The notes: generated from the letters alone by a model not told the origin. Positions 3,615-45,223 are shown, counted from the stretch's first letter. The stretch is 64,000 bases of DNA from an uncultured Actinomycetes bacterium (GCA_963719165.1 CAVRAV010000001.1:1637215-1701214); one strand, 5' to 3'. Numbers and translations: made by a program.

Positions 3615-4200
3615 CCGTGCCCTCCCTCTCCAGCCGTTCCCTGGACGGGAAACGGTTGGGTCATCTTCTTCCGCAAATCAGACTGGGGTCAATAGGCGTG
3701 GGCCATCTGGCGCAGATACCCCAGGGCCTTCTGACACCGTCGGAAATCGTTGACCTGTCCTACCAACACGAGCACACACGCCGCGCTTATCCACCTCGTT
3801 CGAACTGATCCGCTCGCATCAGCGCACGCAGTACTTCGCGGCGTGGGTCCATGTGCGAGAGAAGCTCGCGGAGCTCACGGTCGAGCAATCATCCGACTCC
3901 CCCGCGCACTCGCCTTGGCGACGTCCGTCACGGCTGAGAGTTCGCTGAGTATCCGCGCCACGCGCAAGCCGTCGGACGCCGCCGCTAGTACTACCCCTGG
4001 AACCACCGAGCAGACGAGGAGGTGGACACAGCGTCGGAACTGTGGATAGCAAGAGGGGGTGGTCGCATGGATCACCCGTCGACGCGGATTCGCCACACAC
4101 AGGGAGGTGCGTTCATGGCGTGGGAGTCGTCCAGCAGCTGATCGTGTACGCGTCGCTCGCCGAGGGCGCGGCGGCGGGACCTACTAGGAAGGAGTTCGAG

Positions 4201-4854
4201 ATGTCTGCACAACCTCGATGGGATGACACGGCACCCGCTCAGCGCCCGGTCTCGGTGCCTACGAGCCGGGCGATGGGGGACACGGATCGGAAGACTGCAC
4301 GGATCGTGTCGGTGATCGCCCTGGCCAGCATCGCTGCCGGCGCGATCAACCTCGCCGTAGCGGCGACGATCGGCGGCGGCAACGCCCAGACCTATGCGTT
4401 CTTCGGAGCGGTGGGCGCGGCGCAGGTCGTCTGGGGCATCCTGGCACTGGTCTGGGTAGCCCCCTGGTGGCTCGTGCTCGGCGCGTTGGGTAACGCGGTC
4501 GTCGTGGCCACGTGGCTCGTCTCCAGGACGGTGGGGCTCCCGTTCGGTCAGTTCGCCCACGTCGTGCTGCCGGTCAGGTTCCCCGACAGCGTGGCGACGA
4601 TCCTCGAAGCGGTGACCGTCGTCGGTGCGGTTCTGCTGATGGTTCGGGGATCCGCTACGACGCGGGCCGCGGCACGTGTGCGGGGCTTCACGCTCGCGGC
4701 CGCGGTGTTGATCGGCGCGCTCGGCCTCGCCGGGGTCCTGTCGCAGGCCAACGCGTTCGCATCCGGCGGTGGAGGCGGCGGCCAGAACGGCCCGACCGCG
4801 CCCTACGGTGGGAACGGTGGAGGGGGAGGTCCGGCCGGCGGCTACGGCTACTGA
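4201..4854 (+). CDS. Integral membrane protein with a Gly-rich C-terminal tail (GGGGGGQNGPTAPYGGNGGGGGPAGGYGY)
   Basis: ATG at 4201 preceded by aggaaggag; 5-6 predicted TM helices; the upstream part of track ORF 4042..4854 looks non-coding. Confidence 0.6.
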   Translation: MSAQPRWDDTAPAQRPVSVPTSRAMGDTDRKTARIVSVIALASIAAGAINLAVAATIGGGNAQTYAFFGAVGAAQVVWGILALVWVAPWWLVLGALGNAVVVATWLVSRTVGLPFGQFAHVVLPVRFPDSVATILEAVTVVGAVLLMVRGSATTRAAARVRGFTLAAAVLIGALGLAGVLSQANAFASGGGGGGQNGPTAPYGGNGGGGGPAGGYGY

Positions 4855-12946: not shown

Positions 12947-14383
12947 GTGGACCGTCCCGATCCCGCCGAGCTCGACGCCGTCATCGACCTCGTCGCGCGC
13001 GAGGCCGCCGCGTACCTCCACGGCCTCGACGACCGTCCCGTGCGCGATCCTCGCGCGGAGGAGGTCGCCGCGAGCTTCGGGGGACCGCTGCCCGAGCAGG
13101 GCGTCGGGGCGGTCGGGGCGCTCGAGGAATTGCTCGGCGGGATCGACGGCGCGGTGCACTCCGCGGGGCCGAAGTTCTTCCATTTCGTGGACGGCGGGGC
13201 GACGCCCGCCGCGCTCGGTGCGGACTGGCTCACCTCCGCGCTCGATCAGAACCCGGGCGCCTGGGTCTCCTCGCCCCTCGGGGGGCGGCTCGAGCAGGTG
13301 TCGATCGGATGGCTCAAGGAGCTGTTCGGGTTGCCGGCCGCCTGGGGCGGCGTGCTTACGACCGGCGCCACCATGGCGAACTTCGTGGCCCTCGGATGCG
13401 CCCGACGGTGGTGCGCCGAGCGCGCGGGCGTCGACGTGGACGAGCTGGGGCTCGCCGCCGCGCCGCCGATCACCGTGCTCGGCGGCGGCTACACGCACCC
13501 CAGCGACGTGAAGGCGCTCGGGATGCTGGGCGTGGGCCGGGGTCGCGTGCGGCAACTGAGCCGCGATGCCGTGGGGCGCGTCGACCTCGACGCGATGCGG
13601 GCCGCGCTCGCCGAGCTGAACGGGCAACCCGCGATCGTCATCGGCAGCGCCGGCGAGGTGAACGCCGGCGACTTCGACCCGCTCGTGGAGATGGCCGAGC
13701 TCGCGTCACAGCACGGCGCCTGGTTCCACGTGGACGGGGCCTTCGGGCTGTTCGCCGCCCTCTCGCCGCGCACCGCGCACCTGGTGGAGGGGGTCGAACG
13801 CGCCGACTCGGTGATCGCCGACGGCCACAAGTGGTTGAACGTGCCCTACGAGAACGGGTTCGCGTTCGTGCGCGATCCGACCCTGTTGCCGGCCGTGTTC
13901 GGCTCGGGCGCCGCCTACCTCCCCGACATCGACGACCCGCAGCCCAACTGGGGCTACCTCGGACCCGAGATGTCGCGGCGGGCGCGCGCCTTCCCGGTCT
14001 GGGCGACCCTGCGGGCGTACGGTCGCGAGGGCCACCGCGCGATCGTGGAACACGACCTCGACCTCGCGCAGCGGCTCGCGGCCACCGTCGACGAGGCGCC
14101 GGACCTCGAGCGGCTCGCCGAGGTGCAGCTCAACATCGTCTGCTTCCGCTACCGCCCGCCGGGCTCGACCGACGGTCCGGCGCTCGACGACCTCAACCGG
14201 CGGATCGGCGAGGCCGCGCTCGTGGACGGTCGCGTCTTCTTCGGCTCGACCGACTACGGCGGCCGCGTGGCGTTCCGCCCGGCGCTCGTGAACTGGCGAA
14301 CCCGCGAGGAGGACGTGGACCTCGTGCCCCAGGTCGTCCGCGAGCTCGGCGCGAAGCTCGCCGCCGGCACGACCGTGACCTGA
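12947..14383 (+). CDS. PLP-dependent group II decarboxylase (aromatic amino acid/DABA decarboxylase family)
   Basis: GTG at 12947; motifs SAGPKFFHFVDGG, TTGATMANFVALGCARRW, VIADGHKWLNVPYENGF (PLP-Lys region). Confidence 0.8.
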   Translation: MDRPDPAELDAVIDLVAREAAAYLHGLDDRPVRDPRAEEVAASFGGPLPEQGVGAVGALEELLGGIDGAVHSAGPKFFHFVDGGATPAALGADWLTSALDQNPGAWVSSPLGGRLEQVSIGWLKELFGLPAAWGGVLTTGATMANFVALGCARRWCAERAGVDVDELGLAAAPPITVLGGGYTHPSDVKALGMLGVGRGRVRQLSRDAVGRVDLDAMRAALAELNGQPAIVIGSAGEVNAGDFDPLVEMAELASQHGAWFHVDGAFGLFAALSPRTAHLVEGVERADSVIADGHKWLNVPYENGFAFVRDPTLLPAVFGSGAAYLPDIDDPQPNWGYLGPEMSRRARAFPVWATLRAYGREGHRAIVEHDLDLAQRLAATVDEAPDLERLAEVQLNIVCFRYRPPGSTDGPALDDLNRRIGEAALVDGRVFFGSTDYGGRVAFRPALVNWRTREEDVDLVPQVVRELGAKLAAGTTVT

Positions 14384-38646: not shown

Positions 38647-39945
38647 ATGACGCTCCCCCTCCGCCGCGCCCTTGCGATGGCCCTGACCGGCGGGGCGCTG
38701 CTCGCCCCGCGGGCCTCCGCCGCCGTGGTGTGGGGGCCCGATCACCCGGTGGGGCCCCCCTCCGTCTGGAACCCGGGAGCATCGCTGACCGCGACGGCCG
38801 ACGGACTCCTCGTGGTGTGGTCGAGCGACTGCCCGCCCCCGCACGGGCGATGCGCGACCGACCGCGGTCCGTTCATGGGGGTGTTCGCGCAGCGCGGCGG
38901 AGGCGGCCGGTGGTCGAAGCCGGTGCGGGTTTCCCAGCCCAAGCGCCAGGCCGAGCGCGCCTCGGTGACCGGCGCGGGCTCCGCCGTGCTGGCCGGCTGG
39001 GTCACGCAGACCTCCTACCGTCATTACCGCGCCACGGCGCCTCGCGCCTTCTACGTGCGACGCGCCTCTCGGTCGGGCCGGCACTGGTTCCCGGCGGTGC
39101 GTCTGTCTCCGGCGGGCGGCCGCGTCGACTACCCGACCCTCGCGATGACGGGCAGCCATGCGTACGCCGCCTGGACGATGGCCGGATCGGGGGCGATCCG
39201 GCTTGCCACGAGCGCCGACCAGGGCAAGACGTGGAGCGTGAGCACGGTCGGCAACACCACCGCGCGCCCCGACGGCGCCGAGGGGTTCGCCGGCTACCCC
39301 GTCGTGGGGGCGAGCGGATCCAACGTGGCGCTCACCTGGTACGCGGACGGCGACGGAAAGCAGGTGGTGAAGACCTCGAGCGCCGGCGGCGCCGACTGGA
39401 ACAAGTCCTCCGCGCTCGACGTGCTCACGCCGCGCGGTCCGAACGACGGTTTCCACTACGCGGGGGCGCGGGGCGCCACCGACGGCACGACCGAGGATGT
39501 GGCGATCTCCTACACCACGACGGGCGGGCTCGCCGTGCGCGTGTGGGATGGGTCGACGCTGGGTCCGGAGCGCGACGTGCTCGCGGGCACCTGGCCGACA
39601 AACCTGCGGGGCCGGACCTACGCCGGCGCCTACGGTCCGGCCGTCGCGCCCTCGGGGACCGAGGACCTGGTGGTGGCGTTCGGCGCGTGCCGCCGGACGC
39701 AGCTCGCGAACCCGTGTGGCTCCACCCGTCGATCCGCGCGTGTCGATCTGTTCGCGACGAGCTCCGGCGACGGCGGCCTCAGCTGGTCGAGCCCGCTCCG
39801 ACTCTCCGGCAAGGAGGCGAGGATCAACGAGTCTCCGTCGCTCGCGCTGACGCGTCCCACCCGCGCCGTGGTGGTGTGGAACGCGCGCGACCCGGCTTTC
39901 CTCAGGTACGGGTTGCGCCTGCGCGCCGGCGTGGGCGGACCCTGA
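38647..39945 (+). CDS. Secreted BNR-repeat (sialidase-like) beta-propeller protein
   Basis: Signal peptide; Asp-box repeats SADQGKTW, SSAGGADW, SSGDGGLSW. Confidence 0.75.
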   Translation: MTLPLRRALAMALTGGALLAPRASAAVVWGPDHPVGPPSVWNPGASLTATADGLLVVWSSDCPPPHGRCATDRGPFMGVFAQRGGGGRWSKPVRVSQPKRQAERASVTGAGSAVLAGWVTQTSYRHYRATAPRAFYVRRASRSGRHWFPAVRLSPAGGRVDYPTLAMTGSHAYAAWTMAGSGAIRLATSADQGKTWSVSTVGNTTARPDGAEGFAGYPVVGASGSNVALTWYADGDGKQVVKTSSAGGADWNKSSALDVLTPRGPNDGFHYAGARGATDGTTEDVAISYTTTGGLAVRVWDGSTLGPERDVLAGTWPTNLRGRTYAGAYGPAVAPSGTEDLVVAFGACRRTQLANPCGSTRRSARVDLFATSSGDGGLSWSSPLRLSGKEARINESPSLALTRPTRAVVVWNARDPAFLRYGLRLRAGVGGP

Positions 39946-39957
39946 GCACCCAGACGC

Positions 39958-40278
39958 TCAGCACGCACGCCGAAGGCAGAACCCTCGGTAGGGCCGGCCC
40001 TGGATGCACGCATGGAACCGCCGCGAGCATCCGCCGCACCGGTACAGGTTCCCGCCGCACGCGCACCCCGTCTTGCTTATGGGTTCGCACCCCACCTTGC
40101 AGGGGTCGGGATGGGGTCGTGCGCGGGCCCGCGTGGCGCCGAGGGTGCTCACGGCCGCGTAGGCCCCGAAGGCCGCGAGCGAGGCACGCGAGACGAACGA
40201 CCGCCGCGTGAGCTCGCGTGTCCGCTCGCGCGGCGATCCGGACCGCTCGACGACCGGTGGCCCCGCTTGCTCAGCCAC
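39958..40278 (-). CDS. Small Cys-rich exported protein with a twin-arginine signal (TRRSFVSRASLAAFGAYAA)
   Basis: 9 Cys in a ~52-aa mature region; start overlaps the stop of the upstream TlpA-like gene. Confidence 0.55.
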   Translation of the reverse strand: MAEQAGPPVVERSGSPRERTRELTRRSFVSRASLAAFGAYAAVSTLGATRARARPHPDPCKVGCEPISKTGCACGGNLYRCGGCSRRFHACIQGRPYRGFCLRRAC

Positions 40279-40844
40279 CGGCGGCTCCCACGATCCGCAC
40301 GCCGTCGCCCTCGGCCACGAGATCCGCGACCTCGTCCACGGTCTGGACTGGGCCGCGGGAGACCACGGCGCCGCCCTCGTCGATCACGAACACGGTGGGC
40401 GTGATGTCCACGCCGAAGGCGTCGGAGACGTCGGTGCCGTGCTCGCTCACCAGCCGAACACGCTCGGCCGCGTGCCACCCGGAGGGATGGGCCTGGAGAT
40501 CGCCCCGGCTCACCACGACCACCGTGGGGAGCCGCCGCGCCGCTGCTTCGGACACGACGCCGGGCACGAGCGTTGCGCACGCGGCACATGCGGGGTCCGC
40601 GAAGAGCACGAGGTGCCGCAGGCCTGCCGTCTGGCGCGCATCGAACACGCTCGCCGTCGGCGGCGTCGGCGCGGAATCCGGGAGCTCGGCTGCCCGGCGC
40701 GATGCCCCCGGAGAGATGACGCACCGCGGCCTCGTCCGCGGCCCGGAGCTCGCCGATGGTCCGTGCGGCTCCCGAAAGCGCCAGCAAGAGCCACGCCACC
40801 GCCGCCGCGAGCACCCCGACCAGGACCCATGGCAGCCAGCTCAC
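40271..40844 (-). CDS. Membrane-anchored TlpA-like thiol:disulfide oxidoreductase, apparent frameshift near 40650
   Basis: GTG at 40844 (GTGA overlap with upstream stop); TM anchor then APGFRADAADGERV in one frame and FDARQTAGLRHLVLFADPACAAC (CxxC) in the frame of track ORF 40271..40648. Confidence 0.6.
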
Positions 40845-41302
40845 GTTCGCACCCTCTCCACGCGCAGCGACGCGAGGGCGTCGTTCGCGATCCGCAGACG
40901 GGCCGCGGTGTGCAGGTCCAACGACGCGATGAGGTAGAGGCTGAACGGACGGCCGCTCATGGAGAAGAACCGCTGCACGCCGGCCCGGTCCGGCGCAGGC
41001 ACCTGGAGCGTCCGCGGATCGAGATCGTTCGCGCGGATGCGCGGGGCCCCCTGTGGCGCGTAGAGGCCCACGTCGGCGAGGTCGGGCGAGAAGCTCACCA
41101 ACGAGCACACCAAGCCGCCACGCCGCCCGCGCAGGGTCGCCGCCGTCTCCAGGTAGGAGCCGTGGTCGAAGGGCAACGGCACGTCGGCGAGGTGAAGCAC
41201 GGGGTGGTTCTCCGCGGGAGGGGGCAGGCGCGGGGTGAAGATCCGCCCCTCCCAGCCGGGGGGAACGTCCACCGAGAGCCCCCGGTCGGCCAGCCTCGTC
41301 AT
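40841..41302 (-). CDS. Hypothetical protein (153 aa) inside the thioredoxin/Cys-rich operon
   Basis: ATG at 41302 overlaps the upstream stop (ATGA); coding-like composition (MTRLADRGLSVDVPPGWEGRIF...). Confidence 0.5.
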   Translation of the reverse strand: MTRLADRGLSVDVPPGWEGRIFTPRLPPPAENHPVLHLADVPLPFDHGSYLETAATLRGRRGGLVCSLVSFSPDLADVGLYAPQGAPRIRANDLDPRTLQVPAPDRAGVQRFFSMSGRPFSLYLIASLDLHTAARLRIANDALASLRVERVRT

Positions 41303-41898
41303 CGCAGCACCACCGCGGCGGCGGCCACAGCCAGTGCCGACTCGCCCCACAGGATCGCCCGACGGACCGGGCCGCCCCAGCGCGAGAGCCCTCCTTGGAC
41401 ACGGCCGAGTTGCGACCGCTCCCGCACGCCCGCCACCGCGAGGATGGGCAACGCGCGCAGGGTGCCGAACACCAACCCGATGAGCGCGGCCCGCGGGACC
41501 CCGCCCACGAGCAGCTCGGAGAACAAGGCGGCGTAGATCGCCGACGCGGTGACGATCGTCACGAACCCCGCCCCCAGTTGGAACCCGAACCCGGCGCCGA
41601 ACACGGGCCCTCGGTAGCGCAGCATCCACTCCTCGTTCACCTGACGACGCACCGAAGGCAGCCGCAGGCCGCCGATCCCCAGGTCGGCCGCGAGCCCCAG
41701 GAACACCGCCGCCACCAGGAGCGCGATCCGCGCGGTCCACGGAAGCGTGCGCGCGAGTGGCAGGCCCACGAACCCCAAAACGGCGCCCACGAGCGCGCCG
41801 GCGGACGCGGAGGCGACGACGTAGGCAGTGGCCGTCGGCCAGAACCGGGATCCGCGTGCCCGCTGCCCGAGCGGGGTGATGCTTCCCATCATCGACAT
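41299..41898 (-). CDS. Integral membrane protein (4-5 TM helices), hypothetical
   Basis: Hydrophobic segments; ATGA coupling to the downstream gene. Confidence 0.55.
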   Translation of the reverse strand: MSMMGSITPLGQRARGSRFWPTATAYVVASASAGALVGAVLGFVGLPLARTLPWTARIALLVAAVFLGLAADLGIGGLRLPSVRRQVNEEWMLRYRGPVFGAGFGFQLGAGFVTIVTASAIYAALFSELLVGGVPRAALIGLVFGTLRALPILAVAGVRERSQLGRVQGGLSRWGGPVRRAILWGESALAVAAAAVVLR

Positions 41899-41981
41899 CC
41901 CTCAGGGCGACCAGGTCGACCGGACGGCGGCGGCGGCGGCCAGGCCCAGGGCGAGGCCGAGGTACACGCCTGATCCGCCGC

Positions 41982-42662
41982 TCAACGCGGTCCCCCGCCG
42001 TCGGACGAGCCTTCCGCGCGAGCCAGCTCCTCATCGGCCATCGCGTCGGTGAGCAGCGACCGGACCTGGTCCCACGAGCTCGCGGCGCCCTCCCCGCGGA
42101 CCTCGCCGTCGGCGCCCACCATCACGAAGAACGGCGACATCGTGATGCCGTAGTCGGCCCAGGCCTCGGTGGACATCACGACCGGAACGTCCGCCGGCGC
42201 GAGATCCTGCAGGCGGGACGGGCTCTCGAGGTCACGTCCCTTGGTCACCACGACCACGCGGGCGCCCTCGGGCATGGGTCGATGCGCGCCCGCGCGCAGC
42301 CCCTCCCAGAAGGCGCGGCAGGTCAGGCAGCCGCTCGACAGGAAGGCCACGAGCACGGGAACCCCCGCCGAACCGACGGGCGTCACCACGGCGTCACCAC
42401 CCAGCGTGCGGCCGGACAGGTCGTAGGCCGGGGTGAGGTCCCGAGGGCCCGGCAGGTGCGTGGGGATGCGCGGCGCCTCCGGTGCAGGGGCCGCCTCGTC
42501 CGAACGGTTCCCGAGGGGGAGCGGCTGCGGGCTGGGTGCCTCGTCGGGAGTCGGCAGGCGCCGGAGGATCTCCGCGTGGCTGCGCAGGAGCCCCACCACC
42601 ACGAACGCGAGCAGTGCGAGCAGGAGCGTCTCGATGACCACGATGACGGTGAGGGCGGTCAC
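41982..42662 (-). CDS. Membrane-anchored thioredoxin-like (TlpA/ResA-like) protein with a CxxC motif (SSGCLTCRAF)
   Basis: GTG at 42662 overlapping the stop of the Cys-rich gene (GTGA); TM helix then thioredoxin fold. Confidence 0.65.
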   Translation of the reverse strand: MTALTVIVVIETLLLALLAFVVVGLLRSHAEILRRLPTPDEAPSPQPLPLGNRSDEAAPAPEAPRIPTHLPGPRDLTPAYDLSGRTLGGDAVVTPVGSAGVPVLVAFLSSGCLTCRAFWEGLRAGAHRPMPEGARVVVVTKGRDLESPSRLQDLAPADVPVVMSTEAWADYGITMSPFFVMVGADGEVRGEGAASSWDQVRSLLTDAMADEELARAEGSSDGGGPR

Positions 42663-43246
42663 AGGCAGCCCGCCTCGTGCGAACAGGTCACCTGGTCGAC
42701 GGCGGCCGAACAGTGGCAGTTCACGCATTCGATCTCGCAGGGCAGCACGCACGTGACGAGCCGGCATTGGATCGGCGTGACCGCGGCGATCTGGGTGTTG
42801 CACTGGCCGTAGCGGAAGACCACGCAGCACGTCTTGAAGTTCCTGCAGTCGTCGCTGCCACAGTGGCAGCCGCCGGGGCACGCCTTCCCGGGATCGATGC
42901 TGCAATCGAGGTAATAGCGGACGTTCGTGGTGCCGCACAGGCCGCTGCCCCCGTAGCTGCATTGCCACCACCCGCCGACGAACGTGTTCTGGGGGCAGCC
43001 GAAGTTGGAGCCGCCGGGAAGCGTGCAGCAGAAGGCGGTGTAGCCAGCGCAGCACCGGGAACCCGGCGGACAGCGGCTGCAGGATGCGCGCACGAGGTCC
43101 TCCGCCGCCACTGGGCGCGTCGCATACCGCACGGGCGCCACCGCCAGGGCGGCAGCCGCGACCGTCGCGCGCTCCGCACGTGAGCGCTCGGGCCCGCGCG
43201 CCACCCACGAGGTGGCAGCCTTCATCGCCCGCTCCGCCACGCTCAC
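42659..43246 (-). CDS. Cysteine-rich exported protein (25 Cys in 195 aa; CC doublets, CxxC, CHC motifs)
   Basis: Cys codons cannot arise from GC-frame artefacts; N-terminal Ala-rich signal-like region; start and stop both overlap neighbours (ATGA at 43243-43246, GTGA at 42659-42662). Confidence 0.65.
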   Translation of the reverse strand: MSVAERAMKAATSWVARGPERSRAERATVAAAALAVAPVRYATRPVAAEDLVRASCSRCPPGSRCCAGYTAFCCTLPGGSNFGCPQNTFVGGWWQCSYGGSGLCGTTNVRYYLDCSIDPGKACPGGCHCGSDDCRNFKTCCVVFRYGQCNTQIAAVTPIQCRLVTCVLPCEIECVNCHCSAAVDQVTCSHEAGCL

Positions 43247-43902
43247 GGGCCCCCGGCCTCCGGTCGATCGCCTCGATCGCCTCGATCGCCTCGATCATTC
43301 GGGCTCGCCCCGTCGGTATCGGGCCACAAGCTCGCATGCCCCTGGCCCACGCCCGACATCGCCAACGCCGCGTCGGCGCGCCGATGTCGGTCCGGATCGA
43401 AGAGCTCCTGCTCGTGATGGGTGGGCGGCGTCCACGCACGGAACGCCGTCGGGGCCTCAGCCACCACGACCGTGACGAGCCATCCCGCCACACAGAGTCC
43501 GACGGCCGCGGGCGCCGCGACCCACCCGACGGCCCTCACGATCGACGGCAACGCGGTGACGCCGATCAGCGCGGCCGCCACGCCCGAGGCGGCGGCGGTC
43601 AGGTTCAAGCCGACATGCACCCAGCTTGGGGGGACGTCGTGTTCGCCGGCGCACCCGCATGAGGCCGCTTGCGGCCGCGCCAGCTTCAGGTAGGCCACGA
43701 ACGCGGCGAACCCGGTGTACAGCGCCGCGAGGAGGAAGGCCACGCCGGGAACCGGACGCGCCAGGGCGGCGACGCCCACCGCCATCTCGACGACACCGAG
43801 CGCCCGAACCCCCCAAAGGCGGGCCGGAAGGCCTGCAGCGTAGAGCGCTTGGGAGGTGGCGTTCGGGCGCACCGTCTTCACGGCACCGCCGATGACGAGC
43901 AA
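43243..43902 (-). CDS. DoxX/MauE-like integral membrane protein with an SCGCAG motif and a C-terminal DRG repeat
   Basis: 4 TM helices; CGC motif between TM2 and TM3 as in MauE-type proteins; tail DRGDRGDRGDR encoded by a 9-bp tandem repeat. Confidence 0.55.
   Translation of the reverse strand: MLVIGGAVKTVRPNATSQALYAAGLPARLWGVRALGVVEMAVGVAALARPVPGVAFLLAALYTGFAAFVAYLKLARPQAASCGCAGEHDVPPSWVHVGLNLTAAASGVAAALIGVTALPSIVRAVGWVAAPAAVGLCVAGWLVTVVVAEAPTAFRAWTPPTHHEQELFDPDRHRRADAALAMSGVGQGHASLWPDTDGASPNDRGDRGDRGDRPEAGGP
43256..43292. repeat. 9-bp tandem repeat (gatcgcctc x ~4) inside a CDS
   Basis: Read directly: cgatcgcctcgatcgcctcgatcgcctcgatc. Confidence 0.6.
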
Positions 43903-43989
43903 GGCTGCCGCGAGGAGGAAGACGGGGGCGAGGCGGATGGGCTCGATGCCGCCGGAGCGTAGGGGAGCCCCGACCCATCGTCAATCGGG

Positions 43990-44370
43990 CTAGGCGGTGG
44001 TTGCCTCCGGCTCCAGGAGCACGTGCACGGCGTCCGCGACGTCCTGCGGATCGAAGGGTTTGGTCATGACCATGTCGGCGCCGCTCGACAGGCAGCGCTC
44101 CCGCTCTCGCGACATGGTGACCGCCGTGAGCACGAGGATCGGCACCCGTTTCGTGTCCGCGTCTTCGCGCAGGACGGCGAGGACGTCGTAGCCGTTCACG
44201 GAGGGCATCATCAGGTCGAGCACGATGACGTCGGGATGCTCGGCGCGCGCAACCTCGATGCCCGCACGCCCGCCGTCCGCGATCAGGATCTGGTGGTCCT
44301 GCCCGTGAAAGGCGTAGCGCAGGATCGTCCCCACCACGGTCTCATCATCGATCACCAGCACTCGCGACAT
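43990..44370 (-). CDS. Single-domain response regulator (CheY-like receiver)
   Basis: ATG at 44370 with GGAGGTGA RBS; MSRVLVIDDE...DLMMP...KPF receiver motifs. Confidence 0.8.
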   Translation of the reverse strand: MSRVLVIDDETVVGTILRYAFHGQDHQILIADGGRAGIEVARAEHPDVIVLDLMMPSVNGYDVLAVLREDADTKRVPILVLTAVTMSRERERCLSSGADMVMTKPFDPQDVADAVHVLLEPEATTA

Positions 44371-44446: not shown

Positions 44447-44836
44447 TCAGCGCAGGTCGAGGCCTTGGATCCCCTCGAAACCCGACCGGTCGAACGAGAT
44501 GAGCGACCTGTCTCGCGCGATGGCGGTGGCCGCGATCAACAGATCGTGCGCGCCTCGAGGACGTCCGGGCCGCCGCGCCTGCTCGAGCAGCCCCGCATGC
44601 ACTTCGGCCACGGCCAGGTCGTAATCCTCGACCGGGATCGTCGTCACGACCTGTTCGACGAACGTAGCGCGCTTGGGGCGGCGGCGTGCATCCGCCAATC
44701 TCACACCGACCCAAAGTTCGGCCGCCGTCACGGCGGCGATGCTGACATCGTCGTCATCGCGGATGAGATCGTCCAGCTCAGAGAGCCGGCGCTCGACCGC
44801 GACCAGGACGGAGGTGTCCAGGATCACGCGTCCCAC
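44447..44836 (-). CDS. vapC: Type II toxin VapC (PIN domain)
   Basis: VILDTSVLVA..., acidic PIN residues. Confidence 0.8.
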   Translation of the reverse strand: MGRVILDTSVLVAVERRLSELDDLIRDDDDVSIAAVTAAELWVGVRLADARRRPKRATFVEQVVTTIPVEDYDLAVAEVHAGLLEQARRPGRPRGAHDLLIAATAIARDRSLISFDRSGFEGIQGLDLR

Positions 44837-44996
44837 GGCGACCCCGCCACGGGGAGGTCGGCCCTGAGCGCCCTGACCTCATCAGCCCAGGCCGGATCGC
44901 TCGGCGCTCCGGTGAGAAGGCCCTTCACGGCCGCTCCCGTGGCGCCGGTTGCCGGCTGCTTGAGCGATGTCGGGCCGACGAGGTACCGTGAGCCCA
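44823..44996 (-). CDS. vapB: Putative VapB-like antitoxin (57 aa)
   Basis: ORF absent from the track (<60 aa); stop overlaps the vapC GTG (GTGA); ATG shares a CCATGG palindrome with the divergent fmdB-like start; coordinates +/-1. Confidence 0.35.
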
Positions 44997-45223
44997 TGGC
45001 CACCTACGAGTACGTCTGTCTGGCGTGTGAGCATCCGTTCGAAGAGCGCCGCTCCATGAGCGCCGTGGACACGGCCCTGGCATGCCCACAGTGTGGAAGC
45101 GATCGCGTGCGTCGACGGTTCTCGTTGTTCGCCGCAGCTTCGGGCACGACCTCCGACGCGGCGGCAGGCGGTGCCGCCAACTCGGGGGGCTGCTGCGGGG
45201 GCGGGTGCGCCTGCGGCGGATGA
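44996..45223 (+). CDS. FmdB-family zinc-ribbon protein
   Basis: MATYEYVCLACEHPFEERRSMS...CPQCGSDRVRR and a Gly/Cys tail; the family pattern is recognisable. Confidence 0.7.
   Translation: MATYEYVCLACEHPFEERRSMSAVDTALACPQCGSDRVRRRFSLFAAASGTTSDAAAGGAANSGGCCGGGCACGG

Follow-up and report, generated by a model that had tools for sequence, protein, structure and literature searches.

The window analysed here, a 64,000-nt stretch of DNA with a GC content of ~73% from an uncultured Actinomycetes bacterium, holds on its minus strand, between positions 39958 and 43902 (all coordinates are those of the window), seven tightly packed open reading frames (ORFs), genes A to G. We regard this cassette as probably being a module of the MauFED type, dedicated to the oxidative maturation of a new cysteine-knot client, the product of gene B, which is possibly related to MauA, the methylamine dehydrogenase (MADH) small subunit. 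According to the initial annotation of this DNA, the genes would encode an uncharacterised system dedicated to the maturation or oxidative folding of novel disulfide-rich exported proteins. This central idea is supported by the gene order and cysteine spacing, both of which we found to be strongly conserved; their absence from related genomes, which the annotation had named as a ground for refutation, was not observed. The sample to which all synteny counts below refer consists of 83 related loci (L-numbered).

The genes mauF, mauE and mauD are reportedly needed for the MADH small subunit. Their products have hitherto been known mainly as MADH helpers, and MauE has been recognised as a DsbB-like oxidase only since 2026. 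In the cassette, the whole MauF/MauE/MauD trio appears to be conserved around a different, unannotated client, and it could serve as a natural second system for dissecting the roles of MauF and MauD. B itself would represent a large new cysteine-knot family with a confident predicted fold, essentially unmatched in the PDB and apparently displayed at the cell wall, and a possible evolutionary bridge to the small subunits that carry tryptophan tryptophylquinone (TTQ). The passage of disulfide-rich proteins through the twin-arginine translocation (Tat) pathway also becomes directly testable with this cassette.

A conserved five-gene core

B was present in all of the related loci (83/83), the thioredoxin-fold protein of gene C (hereafter also Trx1) in 81, D in 80, E in 77 and MauE, encoded by gene A, in 68, and the missing core genes are explained by contig ends or by divergent MauE sequences. 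The A-B-C-D-E arrangement is far beyond chance. Three loci with a long form of B, described below, keep MauE, C, D and E beside B in the orders MauE-Trx-D-E-B and MauE-Trx-E-B-D, and fused MauE-B ORFs occur as five sequences in one cluster, drawn from three sources (NCBI, JGI and ENA). Moreover, a tail motif, AGIGPxHPSL(W/Y)P, is carried by MauE in the window's clade and by the MauD-like thioredoxin in a Solirubrobacterales clade; in its fuller form, R..D..L..AG(I/V)GPxH(P/A)SL(W/Y)P, it is found at 43243-43400 in the window and at the Trx1 C-termini of L049-L082. The swap of this tail suggests that MauE and the thioredoxin share a docking peptide and form a complex. Given the synteny in the 83 loci, the shuffled orders, the MauE-B fusions and the tail swap, it is very likely that genes A to E constitute a functional five-gene unit.

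Five representative proteins (P0123, P0125, P0128, P0160 and P0171) are single ORFs of 360-450 aa in which the B domain is C-terminal. P0123, the full sequence of which was read, joins MauE to a complete B with its leader, and it is to its cluster that the five fused sequences belong. A MauE of five transmembrane (TM) segments plus an exported B is difficult to square with the topology of a fusion of this kind.

We recovered 312 close homologues of B, every one of them named 'hypothetical', and at E <= 1e-3 the family comprises 496 cluster representatives in 1.84 billion proteins, with relatives in the genomes of at least 553 species-level units of little-studied soil Actinomycetota. Among these relatives, the best 80 all come from metagenome-assembled genomes (MAGs) of uncultured Actinomycetota, including Thermoleophilia, Solirubrobacterales and Gaiellales; one cluster member belongs to a MAG of Iamia sp. 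No published description of the B family was found in our literature searches.

The cysteine-rich protein B and its relation to MauA

Gene B (42659..43246, minus strand) encodes a 195-aa exported protein, the presumed client, in which we counted the 25 cysteines initially reported. It is composed of a long leader, which in the window carries RSRAER plus an h-region and in most relatives a SRRGFL Tat motif, and of a ~140-aa domain marked by the invariant motifs GYTAFCC, G.N.CP, GWW(K/Q)C, RYY.DC and FRYGQCN. The minimal domain has 18 conserved cysteines, exactly 18 being present in 51 members, and seven more are found in the window's clade. The cysteines of the pairs C56-C66, C123-C140 and C170-C179 co-vary in presence (phi 0.97-1.0), C96-C188 and C127-C141 are lost together, and C174 is the odd cysteine out. 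This paired gain and loss would be the signature of disulfides and not of metal ligands.

The AlphaFold model of the mature B domain, built with 105 sequences, is confident, with a predicted local distance difference test score (pLDDT) of 88.5 and a predicted template modelling score (pTM) of 0.84. A Foldseek search of the model against the PDB gave no match, searches of PDB sequences, with either B alone or the B profile as query, returned nothing useful, and no Pfam or NCBIfam family was matched by B, or by the products of genes E and G. B stands for a large and conserved family of predicted cysteine-knot domains that had not been annotated before. It would act at the cell surface, since other Actinomycetota fuse the B domain to LGFP or CWB2 wall-anchor repeats. 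In these long forms, found in the Iamia MAG and in other lineages, the B domain is the N-terminus of proteins of 400-740 aa, the C-terminal parts of which consist of LGFP, CW_binding_2 (CWB2), DUF4214 or propeller-like repeats.

In regards to a kinship with MauA, the full-length hhalign comparison gave a match of 94.6% (E 6.8e-8). When B was split, the leader alone gave E 1e-6 and the mature domain alone E 0.18, and we therefore rejected the profile match as proof of homology, its signal being that of the Tat leader. None of 30 B members matched PF02975, the Pfam model of MauA, and judged by its sequence B falls outside the MauA family as defined. By eye, B and MauA share a GG...CP.GT run and, after it, two strands, one containing W and the other Y..DC, which form the central hairpin of the B model. 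The adjacent W93 and W94 are invariant in B, which has no conserved second tryptophan equivalent to W108 of MauA. MauG, MauB and MauJ were found neither in the window nor in any related locus that was fetched, which agrees with the initial statement that no MADH is present. A common ancestry of B and the small subunits that bear TTQ, MauA and aromatic amine dehydrogenase beta (AADH-beta), is possible; homology with MauA is not established, and we would put its chances at about even.

Amicyanin-like cupredoxin ORFs were seen in seven related loci, at 2.5-5 kb from the cassette and not adjacent to it (L044, L046 and L047 at ~4150-4540; L049, L074, L076 and L079 at ~13500-14080). They match the amicyanin of Paracoccus denitrificans with E values of 1e-5 to 2e-7. 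Their location near the cassette is probably coincidental, and they would become relevant if B proves to be redox-active.

Homologues of MauE, MauD and MauF, and protein E

Gene A (43243..43947, minus strand; the ORF as listed spans 43243-43902 with a TTG start) encodes a MauE-family membrane protein that matches Pfam PF07291 with a score of 40 bits (cutoff 27, E 5.7e-10). Five TM segments are predicted, together with a CGC motif (SCGCAG), a conserved glutamate in TM2 and a C-terminal GxGxGHxSLWP tail; across 27 MauE sequences, that of P. denitrificans included, C102-G-C104 and E59 are invariant. With MauE features defined as in bioRxiv 10.64898/2026.03.05.709764 (CXC, TM1 Lys and TM2 Glu), the TM1 lysine is also present in the window (GGAVK), and the CXC sits in the loop after TM3. 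The same preprint shows that two MauE proteins can take the place of DsbB in E. coli via the CXC motif, and it proposes quinone coupling and a thioredoxin-fold partner for MauE, which is viewed as a widespread oxidase of the generalist kind that in most cases is not linked to MauA; an earlier study is mentioned there as having proposed MauE to be a reductase (bioRxiv 10.64898/2026.03.05.709764).

The codons of MauE TM1 extend upstream of the TTG at 43902 (43903-43990) with no in-frame ATG, GTG or TTG, and an upstream TM1 without canonical start is also found in the 98%-identical locus L004. There is an in-frame ATC at 43947 and an ATG at 43978 in another frame, which implies either a non-canonical MauE start (ATC 43947) or a shared frameshift relative to ATG 43978. 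At the other end of the gene, a perfect 9-bp tandem repeat, TCGATCGCC, in 3.7 copies at 43264-43296, encodes GDRGDRGDR in the MauE C-terminus; it is not found in the 98%-related L004, which points to a recent expansion.

Gene C (41982..42662, minus strand) encodes a TM-anchored, MauD-like thioredoxin-fold protein with a CxxC active site. In its family, a TM helix lies at the N-terminus, the juxtamembrane LLRSHAEILRRL motif and the SGCxxC (CLTC in the window) are both invariant, and there is a cis-proline motif, SP(F/Y)F. For direct comparison, the P. denitrificans mau cluster was fetched, and the C family profile matched its MauD in hhalign with a probability of 97% (E 8.1e-11, 118 columns). 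With the MauD model TIGR02661, C scored 25.4 bits (E 8.4e-6) and the second thioredoxin of the cassette, encoded by gene F, 26.8 bits (E 3e-6); the equivalog cutoff of 188.6 was reached by neither, and by this measure C and F are not equivalogs of MauD. The label 'TlpA-like', previously given to both, did not hold: C has no Pfam match, F matches Redoxin below the cutoff, the N-terminal flank is almost devoid of lysine and arginine (K/R), and both proteins are MauD-like.

Gene D (41299..41898, minus strand) had been taken for one of two MauE/DoxX-like membrane proteins; only A is a MauE, and the 199-aa D is a polytopic membrane protein that is MauF-like and belongs to the DsbD_2 superfamily. 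Its family profile matched P. denitrificans MauF with an hhalign probability of 96.8% (E 2.8e-10, 169 columns), a tblastn search with MauF hit the window at 41353-41919 (E 0.002) and D in 41 loci, and Pfam DsbD_2 was matched by 15 of 31 D family members (best E 2.3e-6). D contains no cysteine at all; it begins at about residue 82 of MauF, without the first TM helix and the SPC motif of the latter, and its N-terminus, MLGSITPLGERGRG, and a RRQVNE.W..YRGWVYG.GFG.QLG motif are invariant or nearly so. The cassette would thus hold homologues of all three mau accessory proteins, MauF, MauE and MauD.

The remaining core member, the 153-aa product of gene E (40841..41302, minus strand), belongs to no known family. 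It has neither a signal peptide nor a TM segment, adjoins D in 77 of the 83 loci, and is present in all three of the shuffled long-form loci. Its family numbers at least 1226 proteins, in which no Pfam domain was detected, and our searches revealed no PDB sequence match and no similarity to MauJ.

A possible maturation pathway and its weak points

In the pathway that we propose, B would be exported, by Tat in most lineages, and the MauD-like thioredoxin C would introduce or shuffle 9-12 disulfides in it. MauE would in turn, by analogy with other MauE proteins, re-oxidise thioredoxin C through the CGC loop and pass the electrons to the quinone pool. D might assist, for example as a scaffold or in coupling to export, and E might do so by handling the leader or the precursor, both roles being guesses. 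The products of F and G and a secreted beta-propeller protein would form an add-on module in the window's clade.

The mau cluster (mauFBEDACJGMN) of P. denitrificans and Methylobacterium extorquens resembles the cassette in that MauE (CGC), a TM-anchored MauD (CxxC, with the same type of juxtamembrane motif) and MauF are found beside a small cysteine-rich protein with a long Tat leader, and B occupies the place of mauA as in mauEDA. However, the cassette is without MauB, the TTQ-forming MauG, MauJ, MauMN and an adjacent cupredoxin gene, it has an extra core gene, E, with no mau counterpart, and its hosts are Actinomycetota and not methylotrophic Proteobacteria. Compared with MauA, B is longer, has 18-25 cysteines instead of 12, is without the second TTQ tryptophan and does not match the MauA Pfam model, and D, compared with MauF, is without the first helix with its SPC.

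The MauE-centred, DsbB-like pathway of the preprint (bioRxiv 10.64898/2026.03.05.709764) has in common with the cassette the CXC, the TM1 lysine, the TM2 glutamate, a thioredoxin-fold partner and an occurrence without MauA. The MauE described there is a generalist, tested with E. coli DsbA, whereas the MauE of the cassette appears locked with one client, a MauF-like protein and E, and has A-G after the CGC where F-G is usual. The DsbB-DsbA and VKOR-thioredoxin systems follow the same proposed logic, in which a membrane quinone-linked oxidase acts on a thioredoxin-fold catalyst and the latter on exported substrates, but their membrane proteins are unrelated, they are general and not client-linked, their substrates use the Sec pathway, and they have no MauF-like or E-like partners. 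Finally, D and MauF are in the superfamily of the CcdA/DsbD_2 transporters, with which D also shares an N-terminal motif region of the S-x-x-P-L type; unlike these transporters, D does not have the two catalytic cysteines, so that an electron relay by thiol exchange is impossible.

Several observations weigh against the proposed pathway. Both the direction of electron flow and the links between the cassette proteins are inferred, and the scores of ~25 bits with the MauD equivalog model are far from the 188.6 that it demands. A crude positive-inside count in the Trx1 family gave a mean K/R of 0.16 before the TM helix and 3.0 after it; positive charges follow the TM anchor in C, F and MauD, and in P. 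denitrificans MauE (MauE and MauD of this species lie at 4623-5787 of L085) loops 1, 3 (the CGC loop) and 5 have K/R counts of 3, 4 and 3, and the other loops none. Taken naively, such a count would put the thioredoxin domain, and perhaps the CGC loop, in the cytoplasm. The B leader in the window reads RSRAER and not RR, which makes Tat export of this copy uncertain. D, being without cysteines, could not relay electrons as CcdA or DsbD do, and the parts given to D and E remain guesswork. The possible relation of the client to MauA is itself in doubt, given the E value of the mature profile and the Foldseek result.

One could imagine, and we think it improbable, that MauFED-type modules oxidise their cysteine-knot clients at the cytoplasmic side of the membrane, before Tat export of the folded protein. 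Oxidation before export would explain the Tat leaders on B, G and MauA and the need for a private oxidase set, as well as the signal-less E and the positive charges after the TM helix of the MauD-like anchors. It rests, however, on the crude charge count and conflicts with the reported replacement of DsbB, which faces the periplasm, by other MauE proteins.

Alternative explanations

The likeness to the mau cluster could be read more literally, B being a genuine quinoprotein small subunit, a divergent relative of MauA or AADH-beta with a tryptophan-derived cofactor, TTQ-like or of the cysteine tryptophylquinone (CTQ) type, at GWW(K/Q)C, in a stripped-down dehydrogenase system for amines or another substrate. 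The shared GG...CP.GT run and the W and Y..DC strands with their modelled hairpin, the invariance of W93 and W94, and the context of MauE, MauD and MauF homologues all speak for it. We nevertheless hold it to be unlikely, given that the PF02975 model, the mature-domain hhalign comparison and Foldseek gave no match worth the name, that MauG, MauB and MauJ are missing from the window and the fetched loci and the cupredoxin-like ORFs of seven loci are non-adjacent, that there is no conserved counterpart of the second tryptophan, W108, of MauA, and that the even number of core cysteines leaves none to spare for a Cys-Trp link. The cysteines of B and G could also bind a metal or a cluster, with folding in the cytoplasm and exit by Tat, the MauD-like, MauE and MauF-like proteins acting reductively or as thiol chaperones in the manner of CcdA/DsbD. 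Tat leaders usually mark cofactor-loaded or pre-folded substrates, D is in the DsbD_2 superfamily, G has CxxCG and FHxC knuckles and a weak PHD-finger-like match, the charge bias suggests cytoplasmic thioredoxin domains, and a reductase role had been proposed for MauE in the earlier study cited in bioRxiv 10.64898/2026.03.05.709764. Against this, the paired gain and loss of cysteines and the even core of 18 fit disulfides better, D has no cysteine for a thiol relay, MauE proteins have been shown to be oxidases that replace DsbB (bioRxiv 10.64898/2026.03.05.709764), and the precedent client, MauA, is a disulfide-rich Tat substrate; we thus give metal binding little credence.

If MauE is a widespread generalist that is mostly unlinked to MauA, as argued in bioRxiv 10.64898/2026.03.05.709764, then MauE and the thioredoxin might be the general DsbB/DsbA-like system of the organism and B a mere neighbour. 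This is quite unlikely in our opinion, since B was adjacent in all of the loci examined, shuffling of the order leaves the five genes together, MauE-B fused ORFs exist, and the MauF-like gene and E belong to the set just as firmly. A RiPP-like or antimicrobial product had been envisaged in the initial annotation, and B or G could accordingly be the precursor of a ribosomally synthesised and post-translationally modified peptide (RiPP) or of an antimicrobial peptide matured by the cassette, both being small, cysteine-rich, exported products beside redox helper genes. It is a highly improbable explanation: mature B is a confidently predicted folded domain of 140 aa, which in other lineages is fused, as the N-terminal part, to the cell-wall anchors of the 400-740-aa proteins, and Pfam/NCBIfam scans of the cassette genes revealed no radical-SAM, YcaO, lanthipeptide, protease or ABC-exporter family. 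The family scans likewise detected no RiPP-type modifying enzyme, protease or exporter among the neighbours. We retain the dedicated oxidative maturation of B as the probable function of the cassette.

The accessory module and the surroundings of the cassette

Gene F (40271..40844, minus strand) encodes the second MauD-like, TM-anchored thioredoxin (CAAC), an accessory member with weak Thioredoxin_2 and Redoxin matches below the cutoffs. The gene is intact in relatives (L004, L005, L008 and L001); in the window it is not one ORF but is broken into two frames, with the TM part (from 40844) and the thioredoxin part (40271-40648) separated by a frameshift of one extra A near 40655 (GACGGCGAGCG in the window). 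A short-read contig, L086, otherwise identical over 285 nt, does not have the extra A (GACGGCG-GCG). F is thus probably intact in nature, and the break in the window an assembly error or a strain variant. If the window was assembled from long reads, similar indel errors could occur elsewhere in it.

Gene G (39958..40278, minus strand) encodes a 106-aa accessory mini-protein which, as first described, has nine cysteines and a Tat signal with RRSF (TRRSF). Its mature part of ~50 aa holds the nine cysteines, including a YRCxGCG knuckle and FHAC, and the alignment of the family shows eight invariant cysteines and an invariant RR. G had no Pfam match in the family scan, and a PDB profile search gave only the weak PHD-finger-like match (E 0.17). 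A profile match of 82% between G and MauA was given little weight, as it spans the Tat leader in addition to the start of the mature part. Convergent with G lies the gene (38647..39945, plus strand) of a 432-aa exported BNR-like beta-propeller protein, which matches Pfam BNR_2 below the cutoff (E 2.5e-6) and has no PDB sequence match; with no similarity to MauB either, it was rejected as a MauB analogue. F is found in ~40 of the 83 loci and G in 35, and the propeller gene adjoins the cassette in 30 (all within L001-L043). The three occur together only in the window's clade, where F and G, and possibly the propeller, would form an accessory module.

The locus had been described as an eight-gene operon, and this description was corrected to seven ORFs plus a REC-only gene. 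The latter lies directly upstream of the cassette, at 43990-44370 as reported, and adjoins it only in the 98%-identical twin locus L004; not being conserved across the 83 loci, it was rejected as a regulator of the cassette. The minus-strand ORF coordinates were exact, as were four of the five overlaps (GTGA at 42659-42662, ATGA at 41299-41302, GTGA at 40841-40844 and 8 nt at 40271-40278), and the fifth, at 43243-43246, reads GTGA and not ATGA. A scan for promoters and terminators was uninformative in DNA of 73% GC. The flanking genes are unrelated to the cassette and encode a PIN toxin, a Zn-ribbon protein, a glyoxalase, an F420-type oxidoreductase and a Na/Ca exchanger. The gene of the PIN-domain (VapC-like) toxin (44447-44836, minus strand) is found just upstream of the REC gene, and it is overlapped on the opposite strand by an ORF with an FmdB-type zinc ribbon (44465-45223, plus strand).

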